A DNA stretch of 64,000 nt from Candidatus Saccharimonadota bacterium (GTDB lineage Bacteria > Patescibacteriota > Saccharimonadia > Saccharimonadales > AQU-01). The notes under the pieces were generated by a model, which ran no database searches, had not been told where the DNA came from, and saw only the letters and a list, made by a program, of their open reading frames with translations. This document shows positions 10,959-55,930 of this stretch, piece after piece; the stretch's first letter is position 1, and every line of letters starts with the position of its first letter. Both the position numbers and the translations under genes were made by a program. The DNA lies in NCBI GenBank assembly GCA_037137935.1, contig JBAXJI010000003.1, positions 3,383-67,382 of the forward strand. Reading direction: 5' to 3'.

Positions 10959-11349
10959 GGGGCTGAATTTAAGCTCGACGTCGGTCCTTCTCGGTTAGAT
11001 CAGCAGGTCGCTTGCTTAGCGTTATAGGGCAAAATTGTAATTGCAAACGCTTTTACTCGCGTACGAGATTTTGTAGCTAGTGCTTTTGCACCAAGCGCAA
11101 TGTTCGCCGGCGCAACAGCTTAAGTTACGACTTAATGCCGTGCCACGCAAGACGCCAAATATTGTAATGGTACGCCAAATCATTTGGCCGCTCATTATCG
11201 ATAATCCGTAGATAGTGCTAAGACTTTCGGATTAAACGCTCTGACTTTTTGATTGTTTCTATGTCAGACGTATTCAAACAATCTACACCTGTAGGATAGA
11301 CTAACTGTTAGGCTAACGGACGCGGGGGCGGTACCCGCCAGCTCCTCCA
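10959..11349 (+). ncRNA. ssrA: tmRNA (SsrA), one-piece
   Basis: 5' GGGGCTGAATTTAAGCTCGACG resembles the E. coli 5' end. The 5' GGGGCTG pairs with 3' CAGCTCC, giving the G3:U70 alanine identity pair, followed by T-CCA. A T-arm is present (gcggg/cccgc). The internal tag frame opens with GCAAAC as in E. coli and runs 11043-11120 to TAA at 11121-11123. Confidence 0.85.
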
Positions 11350-11358
11350 TAGTAAGTG

Positions 11359-11382
11359 CCCGACTGCAAAGTCGGGTATTTT
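11359..11382 (+). terminator. rho-independent terminator after ssrA
   Basis: Stem cccgact / agtcggg with loop gcaa, then tattttc. Confidence 0.6.
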
Positions 11383-11420
11383 CTTTGGAGAATTAAACAA
11401 AAAATGACACCTAGAAATAA

Positions 11421-11448
11421 TTGACATAATAAATAATTGTAGTATAAT
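11421..11448 (+). promoter_or_regulatory. near-consensus sigma70-type promoter
   Basis: TTGACA at 11421-11426, a 16-nt spacer, TATAAT at 11443-11448. It sits 3-9 nt before the ATG codons at 11451 and 11457. Confidence 0.45.
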
Positions 11449-11450
11449 AT

Positions 11451-11702
11451 ATGATTATGAGCAATCACCCTAATGGATCTTTTGAGTTCTTTGGAGAAGT
11501 CATAAACCCCGAGTTATATCGTGAGAAAGTCAAAGCACGTGAAGCTGGGATTGCTGAAGATGATGCTAGAGTATTTTCTGGAGACCTAGAGCCTATCGCA
11601 GATATGGATATACTTCATGGAATGATTGATATTGCGCGCTGGTGGTTGGCCAACACGGACTTTGACTCCTTAGAAGAAGTTGAAGAAGACGAAGAAGACT
11701 AA
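11451..11702 (+). CDS. hypothetical small acidic protein
   Basis: 83-aa ORF ending in SLEEVEEDEED. It is the only ORF between the two copies of the ssrA 3' end. I recognise no family. Confidence 0.5.
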   Translation: MIMSNHPNGSFEFFGEVINPELYREKVKAREAGIAEDDARVFSGDLEPIADMDILHGMIDIARWWLANTDFDSLEEVEEDEED

Positions 11703-11745
11703 AACTAAGATTAGAGAACGCCTGGTGGGTAGTCAATAAGAGTTC

Positions 11746-11770
11746 GTACCCGCCAGCTCCTCCATAGTAA
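11746..11770 (+). repeat. exact 25-nt direct repeat of the ssrA 3' end (att-like)
   Basis: gtacccgccagctcctccatagtaa at 11746-11770 is identical to 11331-11355 (T-loop 3' half, acceptor 3' strand, CCA, plus 6 nt). Confidence 0.8.
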
Positions 11771-11773
11771 ACA

Positions 11774-11799
11774 CCTCACTTTAAAAGAGTGGGGTTTTT
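11774..11799 (+). terminator. rho-independent terminator after the duplicated ssrA 3' end
   Basis: Stem cctcact / agtgggg (one G:U pair), loop ttaaaag, then ttttt. Confidence 0.55.
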
Positions 11800-11989
11800 G
11801 CTTTTTATGAGTAGATAAAATCACTACATTTTGATTGATTATGACAGGCGCTGGGGGTGTATTATTTATGAAGTGCTATTGCTATAAAACTAAAACCAAT
11901 TTGCAGGAGGATTTACGAGTAATTTTAATTCTGAAAACCAAATAGGTAATGAAAGAGACGATTCAGTAATAAGTCATAAAGCGGGTTTA

Positions 11990-12295
11990 TTGCGGGATCA
12001 ACTAGAGTCTGAATTAACCAGAGAATATATCGAAATAGATCACGATGGGCGAGCGCGACATTTTGCTCATACCGTGCTGTCAGAACAAATCAACCGCGGC
12101 AAGACTCCAGAAGCAGAAATTAGTAGTATAAAAAGCCTAGCAGGACTAGCGATTGGGCAGGTGGCAGAACATTATAAGCAGCAAGGTTTTATGGTTGGTA
12201 TCCACGCTCGGGAAATGCTTGACTATAGCGATCCTAGCGCAACAAGACGCCCAACAACTGCCGAATATATCCTACGAATTGACCGTTACTTTTAA
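11990..12295 (+). CDS. hypothetical protein
   Basis: 101-aa ORF with a TTG start. The in-frame upstream sequence is open back to 11894 but has no canonical start. I recognise no family. Confidence 0.45.
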   Translation: MRDQLESELTREYIEIDHDGRARHFAHTVLSEQINRGKTPEAEISSIKSLAGLAIGQVAEHYKQQGFMVGIHAREMLDYSDPSATRRPTTAEYILRIDRYF

Positions 12296-12390
12296 ATCCA
12301 AAGACCGACAACTAATTGCAAGAAATAGGCCGTTATAATATGTATAGAGTCTTATGATAAACCTTAAGGTATAATTTATTCATAAAACTT

Positions 12391-14067
12391 ATGACTGCAG
12401 ACAATAACGATCAAGCGCCAAAAAAACCACAGACTTACAAAGAGGTATTAGAATTACAGCCCGACATTCACCCGGATTTAAAAGTACATTTAGATAGACA
12501 AATAAGGAAAGAAACAGCATCACAGGCTGGACAATTAGCGCTAGCTGTTACCAATGGTGTCGTTATAGACAATAACCCTTCGATTGAACCGAAAGGACTA
12601 AGTCATAACACTAGACTAAGAACAATCCTATCTACAGCCTTGACCGTAGACACAATAGATACATATGCCGAAACAGCAATTAGTGATTTAATTAATCTAA
12701 CAGGCAATGTAGTTAATGAATTTGCGGACACATTAAGCCCAGAAGCCGTGTATTCTGACAATAAAAAATTAGAAGACGCAGCCTTTAGCTATTTTGACTT
12801 ACCTAGTATTACAGGAAATCTAGATAATATAGCTAAAATAGATCAAGACATAAAGAACATAGATAGAGTTATAGAAAAAGCAAGCATCAAAGACCAGGTT
12901 ATAGTCCCGCCCGACGCCCCCGTAAGACCTATTGTTCCAGGAAACGGAGAAGGCCTATTAGAAAATAAGCTACGCCCTCGACTAAAAACATTGCTGTTTA
13001 TTCTTGAAAAAGATAATAACATTGATTTAGACGATCTAAAAATAGCTGAAGGTATTACGACTAATGAAATGATGAGAAAAGAGCCGTACTACTCGGTAGA
13101 AGTTCCTAGTCTTAACAGGACAGTACTGGTATGCAACGAAGAAGGTAATGCCACTTTTGTTATAGATACCAAGAAACTAGAAGAGCTAAAAATATCTACA
13201 GAGCAACTATTAGATATGACCAAGGATAAGTTAAATGCATTAATGGCAGAACACGCTGGCTTTGGAAGAAGAATAATACAATCAGATAGCTGGGTAGACA
13301 ATATCGCAGTCAATCTAAACGAAATACAGTTGAGTGCTAATGAACAAGCAAATACTCAGGAAACACCAAGAAGTTACCTTAACGGAACAGAGCGTGACCG
13401 TCAAGGAAATGCCCTGCTGTATTCCGCAGGCGATCTTGGTAATAAAAGCGGCAAAAAAGGAATGTTTGATGTATCCGGTCCGACAATCCAAAAAGCAGCC
13501 AAAGACTTACGAATTGAAGGTCAAGAAGCTAAGTTTGGTACTAGTAAAGGCATTGGCTATGACCCATGGCAGGTGAACGATATTAGAGATGAGCTCTATA
13601 GACAAAATCTTATCGAGAGAAGTCCACCAGACAGGATTTATTCCGCAGGCGATCTTAGTAGTGATAAGGGCAAAAAAGGAATGTTTGATGTAAGCCAAAG
13701 TACAATCCGAAGAATAGTTAAAGACTTAGTAATTGAAGGTCAAGAAGCTTCTTTTGGTAGTAATAAAGGCATTGGCTATGACCCATGGCAGGTGAACGAT
13801 ATTAGAGATGAGCTCTATAGACAAAATCTTATCGAGAGAAGTCCACCAGACAGGATTTATTCCGCAGGCGATCTTAGTAGTGATAACGGCAAAAAAGGAA
13901 TGTTTGATATATCGTATTATACAATCCGAGATATAGCCAAAGACTTAGGAATTGAAGGTCAAGAAGCTATTTTTGGTAGAATAAAAGGCACTGGTTATAA
14001 CCGCGAACAGGTGGACAAGATAAAAGCCGAAGCAATAAGGCGAGGTTTTATTAAAGCAAATGAATAG
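12391..14067 (+). CDS. hypothetical protein with three C-terminal 73-aa HTH-like repeats
   Basis: 558 aa. The N-terminal about 340 aa are unrecognised. The C-terminus holds 3 tandem units: YSAGDL..GKKGMFDVS..TI...KDL.IEGQEA.FG..KGIGYDPWQVNDIRDELYRQNLIERSPPDRI. Confidence 0.7.
   Translation: MTADNNDQAPKKPQTYKEVLELQPDIHPDLKVHLDRQIRKETASQAGQLALAVTNGVVIDNNPSIEPKGLSHNTRLRTILSTALTVDTIDTYAETAISDLINLTGNVVNEFADTLSPEAVYSDNKKLEDAAFSYFDLPSITGNLDNIAKIDQDIKNIDRVIEKASIKDQVIVPPDAPVRPIVPGNGEGLLENKLRPRLKTLLFILEKDNNIDLDDLKIAEGITTNEMMRKEPYYSVEVPSLNRTVLVCNEEGNATFVIDTKKLEELKISTEQLLDMTKDKLNALMAEHAGFGRRIIQSDSWVDNIAVNLNEIQLSANEQANTQETPRSYLNGTERDRQGNALLYSAGDLGNKSGKKGMFDVSGPTIQKAAKDLRIEGQEAKFGTSKGIGYDPWQVNDIRDELYRQNLIERSPPDRIYSAGDLSSDKGKKGMFDVSQSTIRRIVKDLVIEGQEASFGSNKGIGYDPWQVNDIRDELYRQNLIERSPPDRIYSAGDLSSDNGKKGMFDISYYTIRDIAKDLGIEGQEAIFGRIKGTGYNREQVDKIKAEAIRRGFIKANE
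13420..14064 (+). repeat. 219-bp tandem repeat x3 (intragenic)
   Basis: Units start at 13420, 13639 and 13858. About 125 nt are perfectly identical between units 1/2 and 2/3 (13547-13675 vs 13766-13894). Unit 3 diverges at its 3' end. Confidence 0.9.
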
Positions 14068-14237
14068 CTATTAATTCACTGCTTTTTTTACTACTACTTA
14101 TAATAAGTTTATCTCCTCGCTCTTTAATCCTAAAAACTAAATAAGTAGTGCAAGCGATGACGCCATAATAAAACAAAAAGCAGGATTATTGCAGGATCAA
14201 CCCGAATTTAAGTTAAATTATCATATAATTTGATAAG

Positions 14238-14882
14238 ATGGTTGTAATGGATAAGTCTTCACAAAGAGAACATAATATTCGCTCACTAGCTTGGGGTCTG
14301 ACAGTGCTTGTAGCATTTGTGGCGATAATTGGTTGGGGTCAAAGCTTGCAATGGCAACTCAGTAGCTTGTCGTCATATCAAATCTTTCCATTACTCGGTC
14401 TTGTTGCCTTTAGTCTGCTGTGGTCACATTATATGGTCGGAGCTTTGCAGCGCTATTTAAAGCTCGACCACGCGGTTTTCAAAAATTATTACGAACTGAC
14501 TGGTTATGCTGTGCTATTGGCGATTTTGCTTCACCCTGGATTACTGATCTGGCAGCTCTGGCAAGATGGTGTTGGGTTACCGCCAAACAGCTATTTAACA
14601 TACGTTGGCAAAAGCATGCATGCTACGGTGATTTTAGGTACGATAAGCCTTGTGCTGTTTTTAGCTTACGAATTACGACGGATTTTTGGTAACAAAAGCT
14701 GGTGGAAATATATAAGTTCAGCTTCTGACATTGGTATGTTGCTGATTGTGATTCACTCATTACGCCTGGGATCTCAACTACAATATGGCTGGCTACAGAC
14801 AGTATGGTATTTTTATGGAATTAGTCTAATAATGGCACTAATTTATAAATACCTACATCGTCAACCACAAAAATCTCTGTAA
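14238..14882 (+). CDS. polytopic membrane protein, possibly ferric-reductase/MsrQ-like haem-binding family
   Basis: 214 aa with 5-6 hydrophobic helices. Histidines lie inside helices (LLWSHYMVG, LLHPGLL, IVIHSL). The family assignment is tentative. Confidence 0.5.
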   Translation: MVVMDKSSQREHNIRSLAWGLTVLVAFVAIIGWGQSLQWQLSSLSSYQIFPLLGLVAFSLLWSHYMVGALQRYLKLDHAVFKNYYELTGYAVLLAILLHPGLLIWQLWQDGVGLPPNSYLTYVGKSMHATVILGTISLVLFLAYELRRIFGNKSWWKYISSASDIGMLLIVIHSLRLGSQLQYGWLQTVWYFYGISLIMALIYKYLHRQPQKSL

Positions 14883-14956
14883 GTTTCTAGACTTTATTCT
14901 ATATGATATTGGCTTTAAAACTTCTATCAGAACAACAAACAAGGTAAACTAATAAT

Positions 14957-16402
14957 ATGAACTATTTTGTCACCACCTCTATTCCGTATGTTAATGGCGA
15001 GCCACACATTGGTTTTGCAATGGAGCTTGTACTTGCAGACGTTTTGGCGAGAACTGCACGGCAACAAGGCAAGCCAGTGATATTTTCTACTGGAACAGAC
15101 GAGCACGGTAGTAAAGTGGCCGAAAAAGCTGAATCGCTAAAACTCAAACCAAAAGAATTCGCCGATAAGATTAGCCAGCAATTTCGTGACCTACAGAAGC
15201 TACTCGACATTAGTAATGACCGTTTTATACGAACTACTGACGCAGGTCACGAACAGCGCGCACAAATTATTTGGAAAGCCATCGAAAAAGACGTCTACAA
15301 AAGTAAGTATATCGGCTTGTACTGTGTTGGTTGTGAGGCTTACGTTACAGAAGCGGTCGCTAAAGAAAACGCCGGAGTGTGCCCACATCACAAAACCCCT
15401 TACCAAAAATTAGAAGAAGAAAACTACTTTTTTAAACTTTCTAAATATGGTCCAGAAATCCAGAAAGCGATTGACTCTGGAGCTTTTCAAATTCTGCCAG
15501 CAACCAAAAAGCACGAAATTCTACACCTCATTAAAGAAGGGCTAGAAGATATTAGTATTTCACGGCCAAAAGAAAAAATATCTTGGGGAATAGCCGTTCC
15601 TGGTGATCCTAACCAAGTTATGTATGTTTGGTTCGAGGCGCTAATGAACTATATTACAGTTCTTGGTTATCCTGAGCACGAAGATTTTAAGACTTTTTGG
15701 CCAGCAAATGTTCAAGTAATCGGTAAGGATATATTGCGTTTCCACGCGGCAATTTGGCCTGGAATGTTGTTGGCCCTCGGTCTTCCGTTACCTAAGGCCC
15801 TATATGTCCACGGTTTTGTTAATATAAATGGCGAGAAAATCAGTAAAAGTCTAGGTAATGCAGTCCACCCCAAGGAAATAGTCGATAAATACGGCGTAGA
15901 TACCTTTAGATATTACTTCCTGCGACATATTCCTAGCTATGGCGACGGCGTTTTTACATGGGAGCTAATAGATAAAGCCTATAACAACGAGTTGGCTAAT
16001 GAGTTGGGTAATGCCGTTCAAAGAACAGTCGTTATGATTCAGAAGTATCAAAATGGTTTGATAGGTGATATTCCGGCCTTTGAACACGATGTTGCTCAGT
16101 ACAATGAAGCTTTGGATCTATGCAAGTTTGATAGGGCATTGGATGAAGTCTGGGAGAAGGTTCGTGGTCTTAACCAATACATCGACGAAGAAAAGCCATG
16201 GATGCTAGCCAAAAATAAGGAAGAAGATCATTTAAAGGAAGTGCTAGCATACCAAGTTAGTTGTTTGTTGCAAATTGCCGACATGTTGACACCGTTCTTG
16301 CCTTCTACTGCTGAAAAAATTAAAAATATTTTAGGCACTGGCATTGTTCAGGTCACAGAGACTACCTTATTCCCTAGACTTTTAGATGCCACTAAGGCGT
16401 AA
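14957..16402 (+). CDS. metG: methionine--tRNA ligase (short form, no C-terminal tRNA-binding domain)
   Basis: Class I signatures PYVNGEPHIGF and KISKSLGN. Zinc knuckle CVGCEAY...CPHH. Confidence 0.9.
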   Translation: MNYFVTTSIPYVNGEPHIGFAMELVLADVLARTARQQGKPVIFSTGTDEHGSKVAEKAESLKLKPKEFADKISQQFRDLQKLLDISNDRFIRTTDAGHEQRAQIIWKAIEKDVYKSKYIGLYCVGCEAYVTEAVAKENAGVCPHHKTPYQKLEEENYFFKLSKYGPEIQKAIDSGAFQILPATKKHEILHLIKEGLEDISISRPKEKISWGIAVPGDPNQVMYVWFEALMNYITVLGYPEHEDFKTFWPANVQVIGKDILRFHAAIWPGMLLALGLPLPKALYVHGFVNINGEKISKSLGNAVHPKEIVDKYGVDTFRYYFLRHIPSYGDGVFTWELIDKAYNNELANELGNAVQRTVVMIQKYQNGLIGDIPAFEHDVAQYNEALDLCKFDRALDEVWEKVRGLNQYIDEEKPWMLAKNKEEDHLKEVLAYQVSCLLQIADMLTPFLPSTAEKIKNILGTGIVQVTETTLFPRLLDATKA

Positions 16403-49076: not shown

Positions 49077-50691
49077 CGTGAACGCTGATTTAAAAGAAAA
49101 ATTAAAGTTATTACCCAAAACTCCAGGCGTATATTTTCATAAAAATGTTGCCGGAGAGATTATTTATGTTGGCAAAGCTGCGGTTTTAAATAATCGTGTT
49201 CGTCAATATTTTCAGAAAAGTCGAACGCGTGACGCCAAGACAGAAGCGCTTGTAGCAGAAATTGCTGATACAGATTGGATGGAAGTTGAGAGCGAGCTTG
49301 AAGCGTTATTTCTTGAAGCAGAGATGGTGCGTCGCTATATGCCTCGCTACAATATTCTACTGCGCGACGACAAATCACTTAGCTATATACGTATAGATTA
49401 CGACAGTGATTATCCTACGGTAACTATCACCCGGCGCCCATTAGACGATGGCGCAAAATACTTTGGGCCTTATTTTAATTCGTTGTCTGTTCGCCAGGCA
49501 TTAAAATATTTGCGCAGAGTTTTCCCATTTGCAACCAGTAAATCTGTAGGGCAAAAACGAGCAAATTTGCACTATCATTTAGGATTAGATCCAGGACTCG
49601 AGGAGGGCCGAACTAGTATTAATGAGTACAGATCTAACTTGCGTGGATTGATTAGTTATATTGAAGGTCATAAAGACAAGCTAATCAAATCTTTAGAGCG
49701 CGACATGACAAAGCAAGCAAAGAATGCGCAATTTGAGGAAGCTGCTAAAACACGTAACCGATTATATGCACTCAAAAATTTAAACAAACAAGTAGTGTTT
49801 AGCGACAAAGAGTTCATGGATATTAGTAAGGATCATGCACTTAACGAGCTCGTTGATTTACTGCAACTAGACAAATTTCCTCGTAGAATCGAAGGTTACG
49901 ATATCAGTCATATGAGTGGTACGGATGTCGTAGCGAGTATGGTCGTGTTTACTAATGGCGTTAGCGACAAAGACGAATACCGAAAATTCAAAACTCGAAT
50001 TGACCACAATAATGACTTTTATAATATGAACGAAACCATTAGCCGTCGCCTGTCTTTGCAAGGTCAGACCTTGCAACCTGCTCAGTCTTTGCAAGGTCAG
50101 ACCTTGCAATCTGCGCTAGGAAAGTCCTCTCACAAATCCAAGAATGCCTGGAAGCTAAAATTACCAGATTTAGTGCTGATTGATGGAGGCAAAGGTCAAT
50201 TGGAGGCTGCAATTAAAGCGCGAGACGTCGCCGGACAAAGTGACTTAAAGTTTATTGGGCTAGCTAAGCGCGAAGAACAAATCGTCATACAAAAACCTAA
50301 AATAAAAGGTCTAGTAGAGCATCCTGGCAGTAACGTTACGGTCAATCAGACTACGTTAAAGAAGTTGAACGGTTATGTCACTGAAACAGAAGATTTTATA
50401 TTAATTAATTTATCCCACAGAACAAACTTAATTAAGTTACTGCAAAGAATACGCGACGAGAGCCATAGATTTGCCGTTAGTTACCACTCGACACTCAAAA
50501 GAGGGCGCCAAACTGCGAGTGTTCTTGATGATATTCCAGGATTTGGTCCAGCAACTCGCAAGAAATTATTAAAAACTTTTGGCTCTATTAAGATGCTTGG
50601 ACTTGCCAATAGAGCGGAAATCGAGAAAATAATTGGAATTAAAAAAACCGAACTGTTATTGGCTAATCTACCAGAGCCTAAATCCAAATAA
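49066..50691 (+). CDS. uvrC: excinuclease ABC subunit C
   Basis: GIY-YIG (PGVYFH...IYVGKA), UVR domain (FEEAAKTRNRLYAL), endonuclease domain (IEGYDISH, DGGKGQL) and C-terminal HhH2 (LDDIPGFGPATRKKL). Carries an internal duplicated insert; see findings. Confidence 0.88.
   Translation: MRSNVNADLKEKLKLLPKTPGVYFHKNVAGEIIYVGKAAVLNNRVRQYFQKSRTRDAKTEALVAEIADTDWMEVESELEALFLEAEMVRRYMPRYNILLRDDKSLSYIRIDYDSDYPTVTITRRPLDDGAKYFGPYFNSLSVRQALKYLRRVFPFATSKSVGQKRANLHYHLGLDPGLEEGRTSINEYRSNLRGLISYIEGHKDKLIKSLERDMTKQAKNAQFEEAAKTRNRLYALKNLNKQVVFSDKEFMDISKDHALNELVDLLQLDKFPRRIEGYDISHMSGTDVVASMVVFTNGVSDKDEYRKFKTRIDHNNDFYNMNETISRRLSLQGQTLQPAQSLQGQTLQSALGKSSHKSKNAWKLKLPDLVLIDGGKGQLEAAIKARDVAGQSDLKFIGLAKREEQIVIQKPKIKGLVEHPGSNVTVNQTTLKKLNGYVTETEDFILINLSHRTNLIKLLQRIRDESHRFAVSYHSTLKRGRQTASVLDDIPGFGPATRKKLLKTFGSIKMLGLANRAEIEKIIGIKKTELLLANLPEPKSK
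50052..50109 (+). repeat. 33-bp period tandem duplication of a perfect 21-nt palindrome inside uvrC
   Basis: gtctttgcaaggtcagaccttgcaa occurs at 50052-50076 and 50085-50109. The core ttgcaaggtc-a-gaccttgcaa is a perfect palindrome. Encodes SLQGQTLQPAQ / SLQGQTLQSAL. Confidence 0.9.
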
Positions 50692-54527: not shown

Positions 54528-54614
54528 GCGCGAGTGGCGGAATTGGTAGACGCGCTAGCTTCAGGAGTTAGTGGGGGTAACCCCGTGGAGGTTCAAGTCC
54601 TCTCCCGCGCACCA
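54528..54614 (+). tRNA. tRNA-Leu (anticodon CAG), class II with long variable arm, CCA encoded
   Basis: GCGCGAG-TG-GCGG-AATTGGTAGA-CGCG-CTAGC-TTCAGGA-GTTAG-variable arm-GGAGG-TTCAAGT-CCTCT-CCCGCGC-A-CCA. Nearly colinear with E. coli tRNA-Leu(CAG). One A:C mismatch in the acceptor stem. Confidence 0.9.
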
Positions 54615-54733: not shown

Positions 54734-55930
54734 CTATGCTAATTTTTCTTGCTCTGCACGTTCAGCTGCTTCACGTTCAGCTGCTTCAAGTTTAGCTGCT
54801 TCAAGTTCAGCTTTAGCCTTATCCTTAAACTTTGCATCAAGATATGGAATTGCTCTGCCTGTTTCTGCAGCCGCTCCCCTCAGTAGGGCATTGTAAATTA
54901 CTTCGGCTTGATGTTCGCGCATCGTGACGTTATCACCAATCACACCGTCGAAATCAACCATTACATGGGCGCCGTCAAAAATAGTTCCAAACCTATCTTC
55001 ATCAAGTAATTCATCAAATGTTTCGATTGAATTAAAATCCTTCTTTTTTTTCTTTAGTTCTTCAACTGCATCTTCGGCTTCTTCACTGCCGTCTTCCACC
55101 AATTTATCGACTTTTTTCTGGGCTTCTCTGCCTTCTCGACTTCCCGTGAACCAGATCGTCTCTATAACGACTTTACCGGCCGCAATTTTTTCTTTTAATA
55201 GCTTGTCTACTTTTTCAAAATTACCAGACGAATCTTCAATTATAACAAGTTTTAATGGCGGTTCAGTTTCGTCGTCGTTTTCATGGGCCTCTACAATCGC
55301 AGCAAGTTTTAATGGCGGTTCAGTTTCGTCGTCGTTTTCATGGGCCTCTACAAACGCAGCAAGTTTTTCGAACTTATCACCGGCTACGATGTAGTTAGTT
55401 TTGTCTCTAATAAAATCATGTCGTTCGACTCTGTTGGGAACAGCCTCTTGCAAATTAGAAATTAATTTTCTGACTATTCCTGACTTAGAAATTTTAGCAT
55501 CTTGGTAGCCTGTGGCTGCAACATCACCGGTAGACCAAATGTTTAGCGATTTTATCCTTCCCTGGTATTTTGCAACTAATTCTGGCATCGTATCAGATAT
55601 GTCTGGAGCTAACATTTTACTCATGTCTATGCCATGAAGACCAGTTATTATTTGGCCTCTAAAATTATCAAAACCTACAGAATCAGTTTGTTCATTTTCC
55701 ATAAATTTTTCCCATAATCTAGTGGCGTATTTGTTATAGTCCATATCGCCTTCTTCCTCGACTTTTGATTGAAGTTCAAAAAAGTACTTACTTAAATCAG
55801 GTGATGGCTCGACAGGTTCTATTGATGGATCGTATTCGGTCAAACCTTTTCTATTTCTAGCAGCATCAGCTGCAGCACTTATGAAGTCTCTTGTTATGAA
55901 GTCTCTTGGTTGTGGCGGTTGTTGTTCCAT
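54734..55930 (-). CDS. hypothetical protein with internal 19-aa duplication and Ala/Glu-rich C-terminal tail
   Basis: 398 aa. Contains HAD-like fragments (MVDFDGVIGDN, IWSTGD, VIIEDS) in a non-canonical order. Tail reads AELEAAKLEAAEREAAERAEQEKLA. Confidence 0.6.
   Translation of the reverse strand: MEQQPPQPRDFITRDFISAAADAARNRKGLTEYDPSIEPVEPSPDLSKYFFELQSKVEEEGDMDYNKYATRLWEKFMENEQTDSVGFDNFRGQIITGLHGIDMSKMLAPDISDTMPELVAKYQGRIKSLNIWSTGDVAATGYQDAKISKSGIVRKLISNLQEAVPNRVERHDFIRDKTNYIVAGDKFEKLAAFVEAHENDDETEPPLKLAAIVEAHENDDETEPPLKLVIIEDSSGNFEKVDKLLKEKIAAGKVVIETIWFTGSREGREAQKKVDKLVEDGSEEAEDAVEELKKKKKDFNSIETFDELLDEDRFGTIFDGAHVMVDFDGVIGDNVTMREHQAEVIYNALLRGAAAETGRAIPYLDAKFKDKAKAELEAAKLEAAEREAAERAEQEKLA
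55247..55360 (-). repeat. 57-bp tandem duplication (2 copies) inside the CDS
   Basis: 55247-55303 and 55304-55360 are near-identical (aagttttaatggcggttcagtttcgtcgtcgttttcatgggcctctacaa...). This gives AAFVEAHENDDETEPPLKL / AAIVEAHENDDETEPPLKL. Confidence 0.9.

Follow-up and report, generated by a model that had tools for sequence, protein, structure and literature searches.

A large family of CPR repeat proteins with a hypervariable array of predicted MerR-type winged helix-turn-helix modules

The DNA considered here is a 64,000-nt stretch of contig JBAXJI010000003.1 from a Candidatus Saccharimonadota bacterium (hereafter the window, meaning the whole of the 64 kb analysed). It carries a gene for a protein of 558 amino acids (aa) that ends in three tandem repeat units, each predicted with high confidence from structural modelling to be a small MerR-type winged helix-turn-helix (HTH) module. 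An identical protein is deposited at NCBI as MEI7522036.1 (hypothetical protein WCJ86_01010), from a Candidatus Saccharibacteria metagenome-assembled genome (MAG). Genomes of the candidate phyla radiation (CPR, or Patescibacteria) are small and rich in proteins annotated without a function. The family to which the 558-aa protein belongs is CPR-wide, large, and previously unnamed in Pfam, NCBIfam, PHROGs and PADLOC. The reading we consider most likely, with moderate confidence, is that of a multivalent DNA-binding protein that diversifies by recombination and substitution.

A first-pass annotation of the window had placed the three units at 13420, 13639 and 13858, and both Tandem Repeats Finder and a repeat search of the window confirm this. 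The former reports an array at 13420-14002 with a period of 219 nt (2.7 copies, 87% matches, score 880), and the latter gives the same three starts, spaced by 219 and 219 nt. Nucleotide identity is 87.7% between units 1 and 2, 70.5% between units 1 and 3, and 72.4% between units 2 and 3, while the unit cores share 58-78% of their amino acids. The description of the units as near-identical thus holds for the 3' part of units 1 and 2 but not elsewhere. The stretch of about 125 nt said to be perfectly identical between consecutive units measures 123 nt (13545-13667 = 13764-13886, the longest exact identity at an offset of 219 nt).

All 27 differences between units 1 and 2 fall within their first 125 nt, and the next 123 nt contain none. 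Unit 2 is a mosaic: its head corresponds to unit 3 (the first 29 nt are identical), its tail to unit 1, and its middle matches neither. Given the mean divergence of 12.3% between units 1 and 2, one given run of 123 identical bases has a probability of about 9e-8, so the mosaic relationship of these two units is not due to chance. The tract takes in the second wing strand, helix 3 and the linker and reaches into the following unit, and on its sequence it is a substrate for unequal recombination or gene conversion.

The same annotation had likened each unit to a MerR/excisionase-type HTH followed by a wing, and structure prediction agrees with it. An alignment was made of 85 distinct units, and AlphaFold was applied to one unit alone (unit 2). 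The model has a predicted local distance difference test score (pLDDT) of 93.8 and a predicted template modelling score of 0.82. It consists of a strand (residues 5-6), two helices that form the HTH (7-10 and 24-33), a hairpin wing (39-43 and 46-51) and a closing helix (53-65). In the model of the N-terminal region, residues 334-343, which precede unit 1, are of low confidence and contain no helix, while the last unit ends in one. The repeat is therefore phased as strand, helix, turn, helix, wing, helix, which on these models is the MerR/Xis/BldC arrangement and not the three-helix winged helix of the MarR or GntR type. After the wing, each unit has a single 13-residue helix, and then a linker of about 12 residues leads to the next unit.

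Among solved structures, the closest folds are of the MerR type, though at weak E-values. The top Foldseek match in the PDB is the DNA-binding domain of pSK1 Par on centromere DNA (8csh_A), with a root-mean-square deviation of 1.5 A over 46 columns, a template modelling (TM) score of 0.66 by target length and a match probability of 0.82. Further matches include RacA bound to DNA (5i44) and three entries named 'Partition Protein' (3ez9, 3ezf and 3ez2), and the MerR-type regulators CvkR, GlnR, BrlR and 3hh0 are also among the top matches, which by identifier include 7xn2, 7tea and 5xbt. When a profile of the unit was compared with PDB sequences, its positions 3-38 aligned to the HTH of AdcR (2e-4), Lmo0741 (5e-4) and AraR (2.5e-3), with weaker matches to RacA (E = 0.015) and BldC (6ama, E = 0.62).

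Curated sequence models point in the same direction. The Pfam model HTH_11 is matched by 12 of the 85 single units, below its cut-off, and the repeats of distant homologues match many HTH models in Pfam. For the MerR-type and excisionase models, the best scores among homologues are 23.5 bits for HTH_17 (cut-off 27; protein P0022) and 13.9 bits for TIGR01764 (cut-off 28.8). Against a set of 5.8 billion proteins the unit profile, which is too short a query, found no match at E <= 0.001. The start of the unit, YSAGDL, resembles what we take to be the typical start of MerR-type domains, Y-T-I-G-E-L. As a sequence family, the unit appears to be a new HTH family inside a known fold class.

The array is the sole divergence hotspot of an otherwise mostly 94-99% identical locus. 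Aligned with the related contig L001 over 11771-16346, the window is 88-99% identical (mostly 94-99%) in 100-nt windows outside the array, the exception being 13362-14046, where identity falls to 72-88%. In the N-terminal domain, the numbers of synonymous and non-synonymous substitutions per site (dS and dN) are 0.075 and 0.032 (dN/dS 0.43). In the array they are 0.196 and 0.273 (dN/dS 1.39). Non-synonymous divergence is 0.229 in the array vs 0.031 in the N-terminal domain (Fisher p = 4e-29).

The variation within units is focused on particular positions. Across 33 distinct units of the close clade, entropy peaks at unit positions 24, 25, 28 and 29, which are positions 1, 2, 5 and 6 of the second HTH helix. 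The wing tip (42 and 45-47) and an inserted loop (13-14) give further peaks, while framework positions, helix 3 and the linker are near-invariant. In distant units, basic residues are kept at position 29 (recognition-helix position 6) and at positions 39, 42 and 46 in the wing strands. Targeting of the array by a diversity-generating retroelement was rejected, as the mismatches between units involve all bases and only 7-8 of 27 are A in either copy; no scan of the window for a reverse transcriptase was made.

Unit number is also polymorphic, a point that the first-pass annotation had marked for checking in related strains. An ENA contig (L039, encoding the 485-aa protein P0004) is about 99% identical to the window in the gene and upstream of it. 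It is shorter by exactly 219 nt, and any place inside the 123-nt identical tract fits the deletion. This allele is the expected product of recombination between the two tract copies. Two units are likewise present in P0006 and P0007, from slightly more distant strains (85-87% identity overall), where they differ in sequence. Long exact tracts between units recur in the close clade (123, 97 and 50 nt), while none of 25 nt or more was found in three distant members. Relative to the orthologue P0005, whose N-terminal domain is 92% identical, units are more alike within a protein (67-70%) than between proteins (59-62%). The comparison with P0006 lacks this contrast, which is the mark of concerted evolution (62-67% within, 66-70% between). 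Very recent duplication or ongoing gene conversion, as had been proposed, is therefore supported by the 123-nt tract, the contrast with P0005 and the one-unit deletion in L039, but not by the comparison with P0006.

The N-terminal region, described earlier as unrecognised, remains so. No family match was found in Pfam, NCBIfam, PHROGs or PADLOC (Pfam was run on 21 members), the best match of its sequence profile in the PDB is at noise level (E = 0.23), and Foldseek searches of the PDB and BFVD with the predicted fold gave only TM scores of 0.17 or less by query length. No homologue was detected by tblastn in phage or plasmid records. The model, built from a 27-sequence alignment, has a mean pLDDT of 79.8 and about 90 over residues 70-320, with values below 50 at residues 1-8 and 47-65 of the N-terminal extension. 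It contains four helices, of which two span 23 residues, together with a loop that carries the motif IVPPD and an alpha/beta subdomain with the motifs PRLKTLLFIL and LVC(D/N)EEGNATFV. The region is acidic, with an isoelectric point (pI) of 4.72 here and a family median of about 4.5, and its hydrophilic N-terminus suggests a cytoplasmic location. TOPRIM-like (E-x-G-N) and PD-(D/E)xK readings of these motifs were dropped because they do not fit the predicted secondary structure, in which LVC.EEGNATFV forms a beta-hairpin and IVPPD a loop. A known anti-phage defence protein is also not supported: PADLOC-DB v2 gave no match to the 558-aa protein, and one homologue matched at the level of HTH noise (E >= 0.0046).

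The protein is not the orphan it was first called. A profile of the N-terminal domain, searched against 1.84 billion cluster representatives (clusters at 50% identity), matches at least 1,105 proteins at E <= 0.001, of which 438 reach E <= 1e-30. The 558-aa protein itself matches the family profile over residues 69-339 (E = 8e-112) and has all of the family motifs: IVPPD, PRLKT(L)LF(I)L and (V/I)L(V/I)C(D/N)E.GN. A first search recovered 30 homologues in which the N-terminal domain is followed by two to seven C-terminal units, two of them without any unit by the unit profile. Among 173 fetched proteins, all matching the N-terminal domain profile, unit number spans 0-10 and is most often 4.

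Species-representative genomes were scanned with a pattern, which yielded 31 loci, mostly from Saccharibacteria. Nomura-, Shapiro-, Magasanik-, Moran-, Peregrini- and Peribacteria are also represented, as are a few MAGs otherwise labelled. Outside Saccharibacteria, only the alpha/beta core is conserved (query residues ~168-330). In genomes of the Moran-, Magasanik- and Peribacteria type, the N-terminal core (IVPPD ... LVCNEEGNATFV) is fused to other, unrecognised types of tandem repeat, among them repeats of about 80 aa and units of some 65-70 aa that follow the pattern 'APEGW.T ... NPEWFK ... HYSPEL'. Units of the form 'APEGW..T...NPEWFK' occur in Moranbacteria and Magasanikbacteria. Pfam gave no match to these other CPR repeat types. 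A profile search found a single copy of the gene in the window. On contig JBAXKN010000008.1, from a Saccharibacteria MAG, two family members (L009 and L019) lie about 15 kb apart, so the gene is not always single-copy.

Under the reading of a multivalent DNA-binding protein, the array would be a string of monomeric winged HTH modules of the MerR/BldC/Xis type, three of them here, joined by linkers of about 12 residues and lacking the coiled-coil dimerisation helix of classical MerR regulators. By analogy with the monomers of BldC and lambda Xis, the modules may sit side by side and head-to-tail on one DNA molecule, with the difference that they are covalently linked, and each unit would contact one segment of the DNA site. 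The acidic, conserved N-terminal domain would probably act in oligomerisation, in the binding of a partner or as an effector. Unequal recombination or gene conversion through the tract of wing, helix 3 and linker could add, delete and homogenise units, while amino-acid replacement focused on recognition-helix positions 1, 2, 5 and 6 and on the wing tip could alter how DNA is read. Specificity may thus be remodelled by gain and loss of units, by gene conversion, and by replacement at DNA-reading positions. That the array binds DNA at all is slightly more probable than not.

The best mechanistic analogue for such a string of modules is BldC of Streptomyces (PDB 6AMA/6AMK; PMC5859096), which is a small MerR-like winged HTH with neither a coiled-coil dimerisation helix nor an effector domain, as the unit described here is predicted to be. 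BldC monomers bind head-to-tail to direct repeats that vary in number, and the protein is similar to Xis and RacA (PMC5859096). There are clear differences, however. BldC is a free protein of 68 residues that multimerises on DNA, whereas here 2-10 modules are covalently linked to each other and to a novel-looking domain of about 270 residues. Rather than standing alone, they form part of a 558-aa protein with an N-terminal region of about 340 aa, and sequence similarity to BldC is marginal (the profile match to 6ama noted above). Classical MerR regulators (MerR, BmrR, CueR, GlnR and CvkR) share the topology of strand, helix-turn-helix, hairpin and helix, and several are among the top structural matches. 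Unlike them, the 558-aa protein has no dimerisation coiled coil, effector-binding domain or palindrome-binding dimer. No MerR C-terminal domain was detected in it, nor any match above cut-off to the Pfam models MerR, MerR_1 or HTH_17 or to the NCBIfam model excise.

Several observations weigh against DNA binding and against diversifying selection on it. The fold model covers one unit taken by itself. Every Foldseek E-value is 0.64 or higher, and TM scores by query length are 0.40-0.51 for this small domain; weak E-values are common at such a size. No Pfam HTH model reaches its gathering score in the 558-aa protein or its units. The units have a median pI of 6.8, about neutral, and the protein as a whole is acidic, with a pI of 5.0 and a net charge of -17, which is unusual in a strong DNA binder. 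The DivIVA-domain model TIGR03544 matches residues 380-397, from the wing into helix 3, at 17.7 bits, which is below its cut-off of 22 and suggests that the unit fold could have a use other than DNA binding. The idea that the protein recognises an iterated site nearby also found no support, as a search of the DNA flanking the gene found no triply iterated motif. With regard to selection, dN/dS is 2.2-2.5 between units and 1.39 between orthologues, neither significantly above 1 (p = 0.19-0.27). Synonymous divergence is also higher in the array (p = 0.004), so imported cassettes or the misalignment of paralogous units contribute to the hotspot.

A first alternative is that the units use a winged-helix-like fold for a ligand other than DNA, which might be a partner protein, the membrane or the envelope. 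The protein would then be a multivalent scaffold or adaptor, and its variable surface would follow the rapid evolution of a protein partner, perhaps one from a host or a phage. The near-neutral units of an acidic protein, the sub-threshold DivIVA match, the failure to find a DNA target motif near the gene and the statistical weakness of the structural matches to DNA binders all favour this view, as does the joining of the same N-terminal core to different, unrecognised repeat types in other CPR phyla. However, both the structural and the profile searches have their best matches in the DNA-binding HTH of DNA-binding proteins, variability falls on the wing tip and on those positions of the second HTH helix that canonically read bases, and the basic residues of the wing are conserved. 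We regard a ligand other than DNA as rather unlikely.

A second alternative keeps DNA binding and assigns to the protein a conserved housekeeping role in chromosome organisation or segregation, in which, as in RacA or pSK1 Par, an oligomerising domain outside the HTH would serve to anchor repeated chromosomal sites. That the array evolves fast would then mostly reflect relaxed constraint and concerted evolution, with specificity unchanged. The nearest solved folds of the unit are indeed those of pSK1 Par (8CSH) and Bacillus subtilis RacA (5I44), and RacA is a profile match as well. Both combine the same type of HTH with a helix-rich, oligomerising coiled coil outside the HTH, and both bind repeated sites to anchor or segregate DNA. 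In the 558-aa protein, by comparison, the HTH modules are C-terminal and multiple rather than one N-terminal HTH per chain, the N-terminal domain as modelled is not a simple coiled coil, and centromere-like repeats were not found near the gene.

The genomic settings of the family bear on the same question. In favour of the housekeeping role, the gene is present once in the window and occupies housekeeping chromosomal contexts, and the N-terminal domain contains two 23-residue helices. Distant family members lie in unrelated chromosomal places. In two of the seven distinct genomic contexts that were read, the family gene follows FtsK (L005) or lies two genes upstream of ParA-ParB (L042). Yet all-against-all clustering of open reading frames (ORFs) found no neighbour conserved across 37 loci, so the adjacency to FtsK and ParAB may be chance. 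In addition, in orthologues that are 92% identical, non-synonymous divergence in the array is about seven times that of the N-terminal domain, and strains differ in their number of units, neither of which is expected for a fixed chromosomal site code. A housekeeping role of this kind is given a fairly low probability.

A bolder version of the multivalent DNA-binding reading can also be formulated, which we think quite unlikely. The protein would be a modular DNA-reading system in which each unit reads a short DNA segment through a few hypervariable residues (at recognition-helix positions 1, 2, 5 and 6 and the wing tip) and recombination retargets the whole by shuffling, adding and deleting units. 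This would amount to a 'cassette code' like that of transcription activator-like (TAL) effectors on a MerR-type scaffold, driven by conflict with fast-changing phage, plasmid or epibiont-host DNA, with the novel-fold N-terminal domain delivering the output. TAL effectors serve here as an analogy only. They too have a variable number of near-identical modules with few variable positions each, and their copy number is changed by recombination. Their fold is unrelated, however, with helical repeats of 34 residues rather than winged HTH units of about 70, and one module per DNA segment is only proposed for the protein considered here.

The remaining alternatives concern the place of the gene in the genome and the assembly itself. 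The gene lies downstream of a divergent, CPR-type transfer-messenger RNA (tmRNA) gene (Table 1), which scores only 10 bits above the gathering score and was missed by ARAGORN. Its 3' end is followed by a 415-bp insert that lies between two exact direct repeats of 25 nt (GTACCCGCCAGCTCCTCCATAGTAA; 11331-11355 and 11746-11770), such that the last 19 nt of the tmRNA and six more recur exactly at 11746-11770. In a three-way alignment, the site is empty in L001 and filled in L002 and the window. The insert has a single ORF (83 aa, acidic, 11451-11702), a perfect TTGACA-16-TATAAT promoter match and a hairpin after the tmRNA end, and it lacks an integrase. The insert is a minimal integrative element or what remains of one.

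Table 1. Positions of the features discussed; coordinates refer to the window, except in the last row, where they refer to the named loci.
Feature	Position	Strand	Basis or remark
Gene for 558-aa protein	12391..14067	+	ORF call; 100%-identical database protein P0001
Clade-specific N-terminal extension, ~residues 1-69	12391..12597	+	Missing from distant members
Conserved core of N-terminal domain, ~residues 70-320	12598..13350	+	Alignments; AlphaFold pLDDT ~90
Repeat unit 1, 73 aa	13420..13638	+	Predicted winged HTH module of the MerR type
Repeat unit 2, 73 aa	13639..13857	+	Unit modelled with AlphaFold, pLDDT 93.8
Repeat unit 3, 69 aa, terminal	13858..14064	+	Last helix diverged
Exact 123-nt tract, copy 1	13545..13667	+	Second wing strand, helix 3, linker, start of next unit
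Exact 123-nt tract, copy 2	13764..13886	+	Identical to 13545-13667
tmRNA (divergent CPR-type)	10959..11349	+	Rfam RF00023, 57.1 bits, E = 9.5e-20
Presence/absence insert of 415 bp at tmRNA 3' end	11356..11770	+	25-nt direct repeats 11331-11355, 11746-11770
101-aa ORF, TTG start	11990..12295	+	95 nt upstream of the 558-aa gene
Core fused to other repeat types	L033 3677-5788; L034 3707-5272; L032 3422-5428; L036 3719-5341		

The first-pass annotation had placed the gene next to a tmRNA integration hotspot, which implies a link. In the full form of such a link, a mobile element that integrated at the tmRNA would have brought the gene as cargo, and the units would act like excisionases, as recombination directionality factors. 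The gene does lie 1 kb downstream of a tmRNA with a duplicated 3' end, excisionases share the MerR-type winged HTH (PMC5859096), and one homologue weakly matches the 'excise' model TIGR01764 (E = 0.053). However, the polymorphism is limited to the 415-bp insert, and the gene lies beyond it, in conserved chromosome common to the window, L001 and L002, and so is present in genomes with filled and with empty sites. It is flanked by syntenic housekeeping genes, namely an MFS transporter (major facilitator superfamily) and MetRS (methionyl-tRNA synthetase)/TatD. No recombinase was found in the loci of close relatives or among the neighbours of the gene, and tblastn gave no phage or plasmid homologue of the N-terminal domain. 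Because the gene is outside the insert, distant relatives are elsewhere and no neighbour is conserved, its adjacency to the tmRNA is incidental. Lambda Xis and other excisionases belong to the same class of HTH plus wing, and their monomers are stated within PMC5859096 to bind cooperatively and head-to-tail to adjacent sites. They differ from the 558-aa protein in being single domains of 55-80 residues with a partner recombinase and a mobile-element context. The reading as tmRNA-island cargo or excisionase is thus rejected as very improbable, the gene not being inside the att-bounded 415-bp insert.

Among the neighbourhoods viewed, the only one that resembles a mobile element is that of a distant relative on a 1.9-Mb contig (L006, 1300-4231), where the 2-5 kb upstream of the family gene hold genes for a serine recombinase and Replic_Relax.

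Within the close clade, the gene shares an upstream 101-aa ORF and a downstream gene for a 214-aa membrane protein, and both are confined to that clade. The 101-aa ORF is probably a real small gene, conserved in the close clade only: in comparison with L001, 8 of 10 substitutions fall at third codon positions (a hand count), and it is called as a gene in L039, L040 and L041, although not in L001 or L002. It has no match in family libraries and does not occur beside distant family members.

Two further repeat features of the window were noted. An ORF of 398 aa on the reverse strand (54734-55930), just after a tRNA-Leu gene (54528-54614), contains three repeats of its own: a 15-nt unit present 3.5 times (54760-54812), a 57-nt unit present 2.1 times at 98% identity (55246-55367), and a 15-nt unit present in two exact copies (55879-55908). 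At 50052-50114, a 33-nt unit is present 1.9 times at 96% identity and contains the palindrome-like TTGCAAGGTCAGACCTTGCAA.

Finally, the possibility raised at the outset that the repeats are collapsed or expanded by assembly has next to no probability and is rejected: the 123-nt tract is of the order of short-read length and the two-unit L039 is exactly what collapse through the tract would give, but the same three-unit gene recurs in a Joint Genome Institute (JGI) assembly (L040), where 10 of 1,677 nt differ, only one of them inside the array, and P0003, from a separate ENA contig, is a 558-aa protein 99% identical at the protein level; moreover, family members of many sources carry 0-10 units, and the contig name of L039 (k141_...) suggests, from assembler naming, a final k-mer of 141, longer than the tract.

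A search of the literature on repeat DNA-binding proteins of Saccharibacteria and Patescibacteria found nothing relevant, and we know of no described polypeptide that carries as many as ten MerR-type winged HTH modules. The architecture is unusual in joining many covalently linked MerR-type modules to a novel N-terminal domain, with localised hypervariability and alleles that differ in copy number. If the units are not DNA-binding, the proteins would still form a large, uncharacterised repeat-protein family worth naming. If each unit binds one DNA segment, the family would offer a tractable case in which the shuffling of cassettes drives the evolution of specificity, and it might also supply a new scaffold on which to design DNA binders. 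Variability is placed where winged HTH domains read DNA, and copy number differs between near-identical strains; together, these features make the array a testable case of retargeting.

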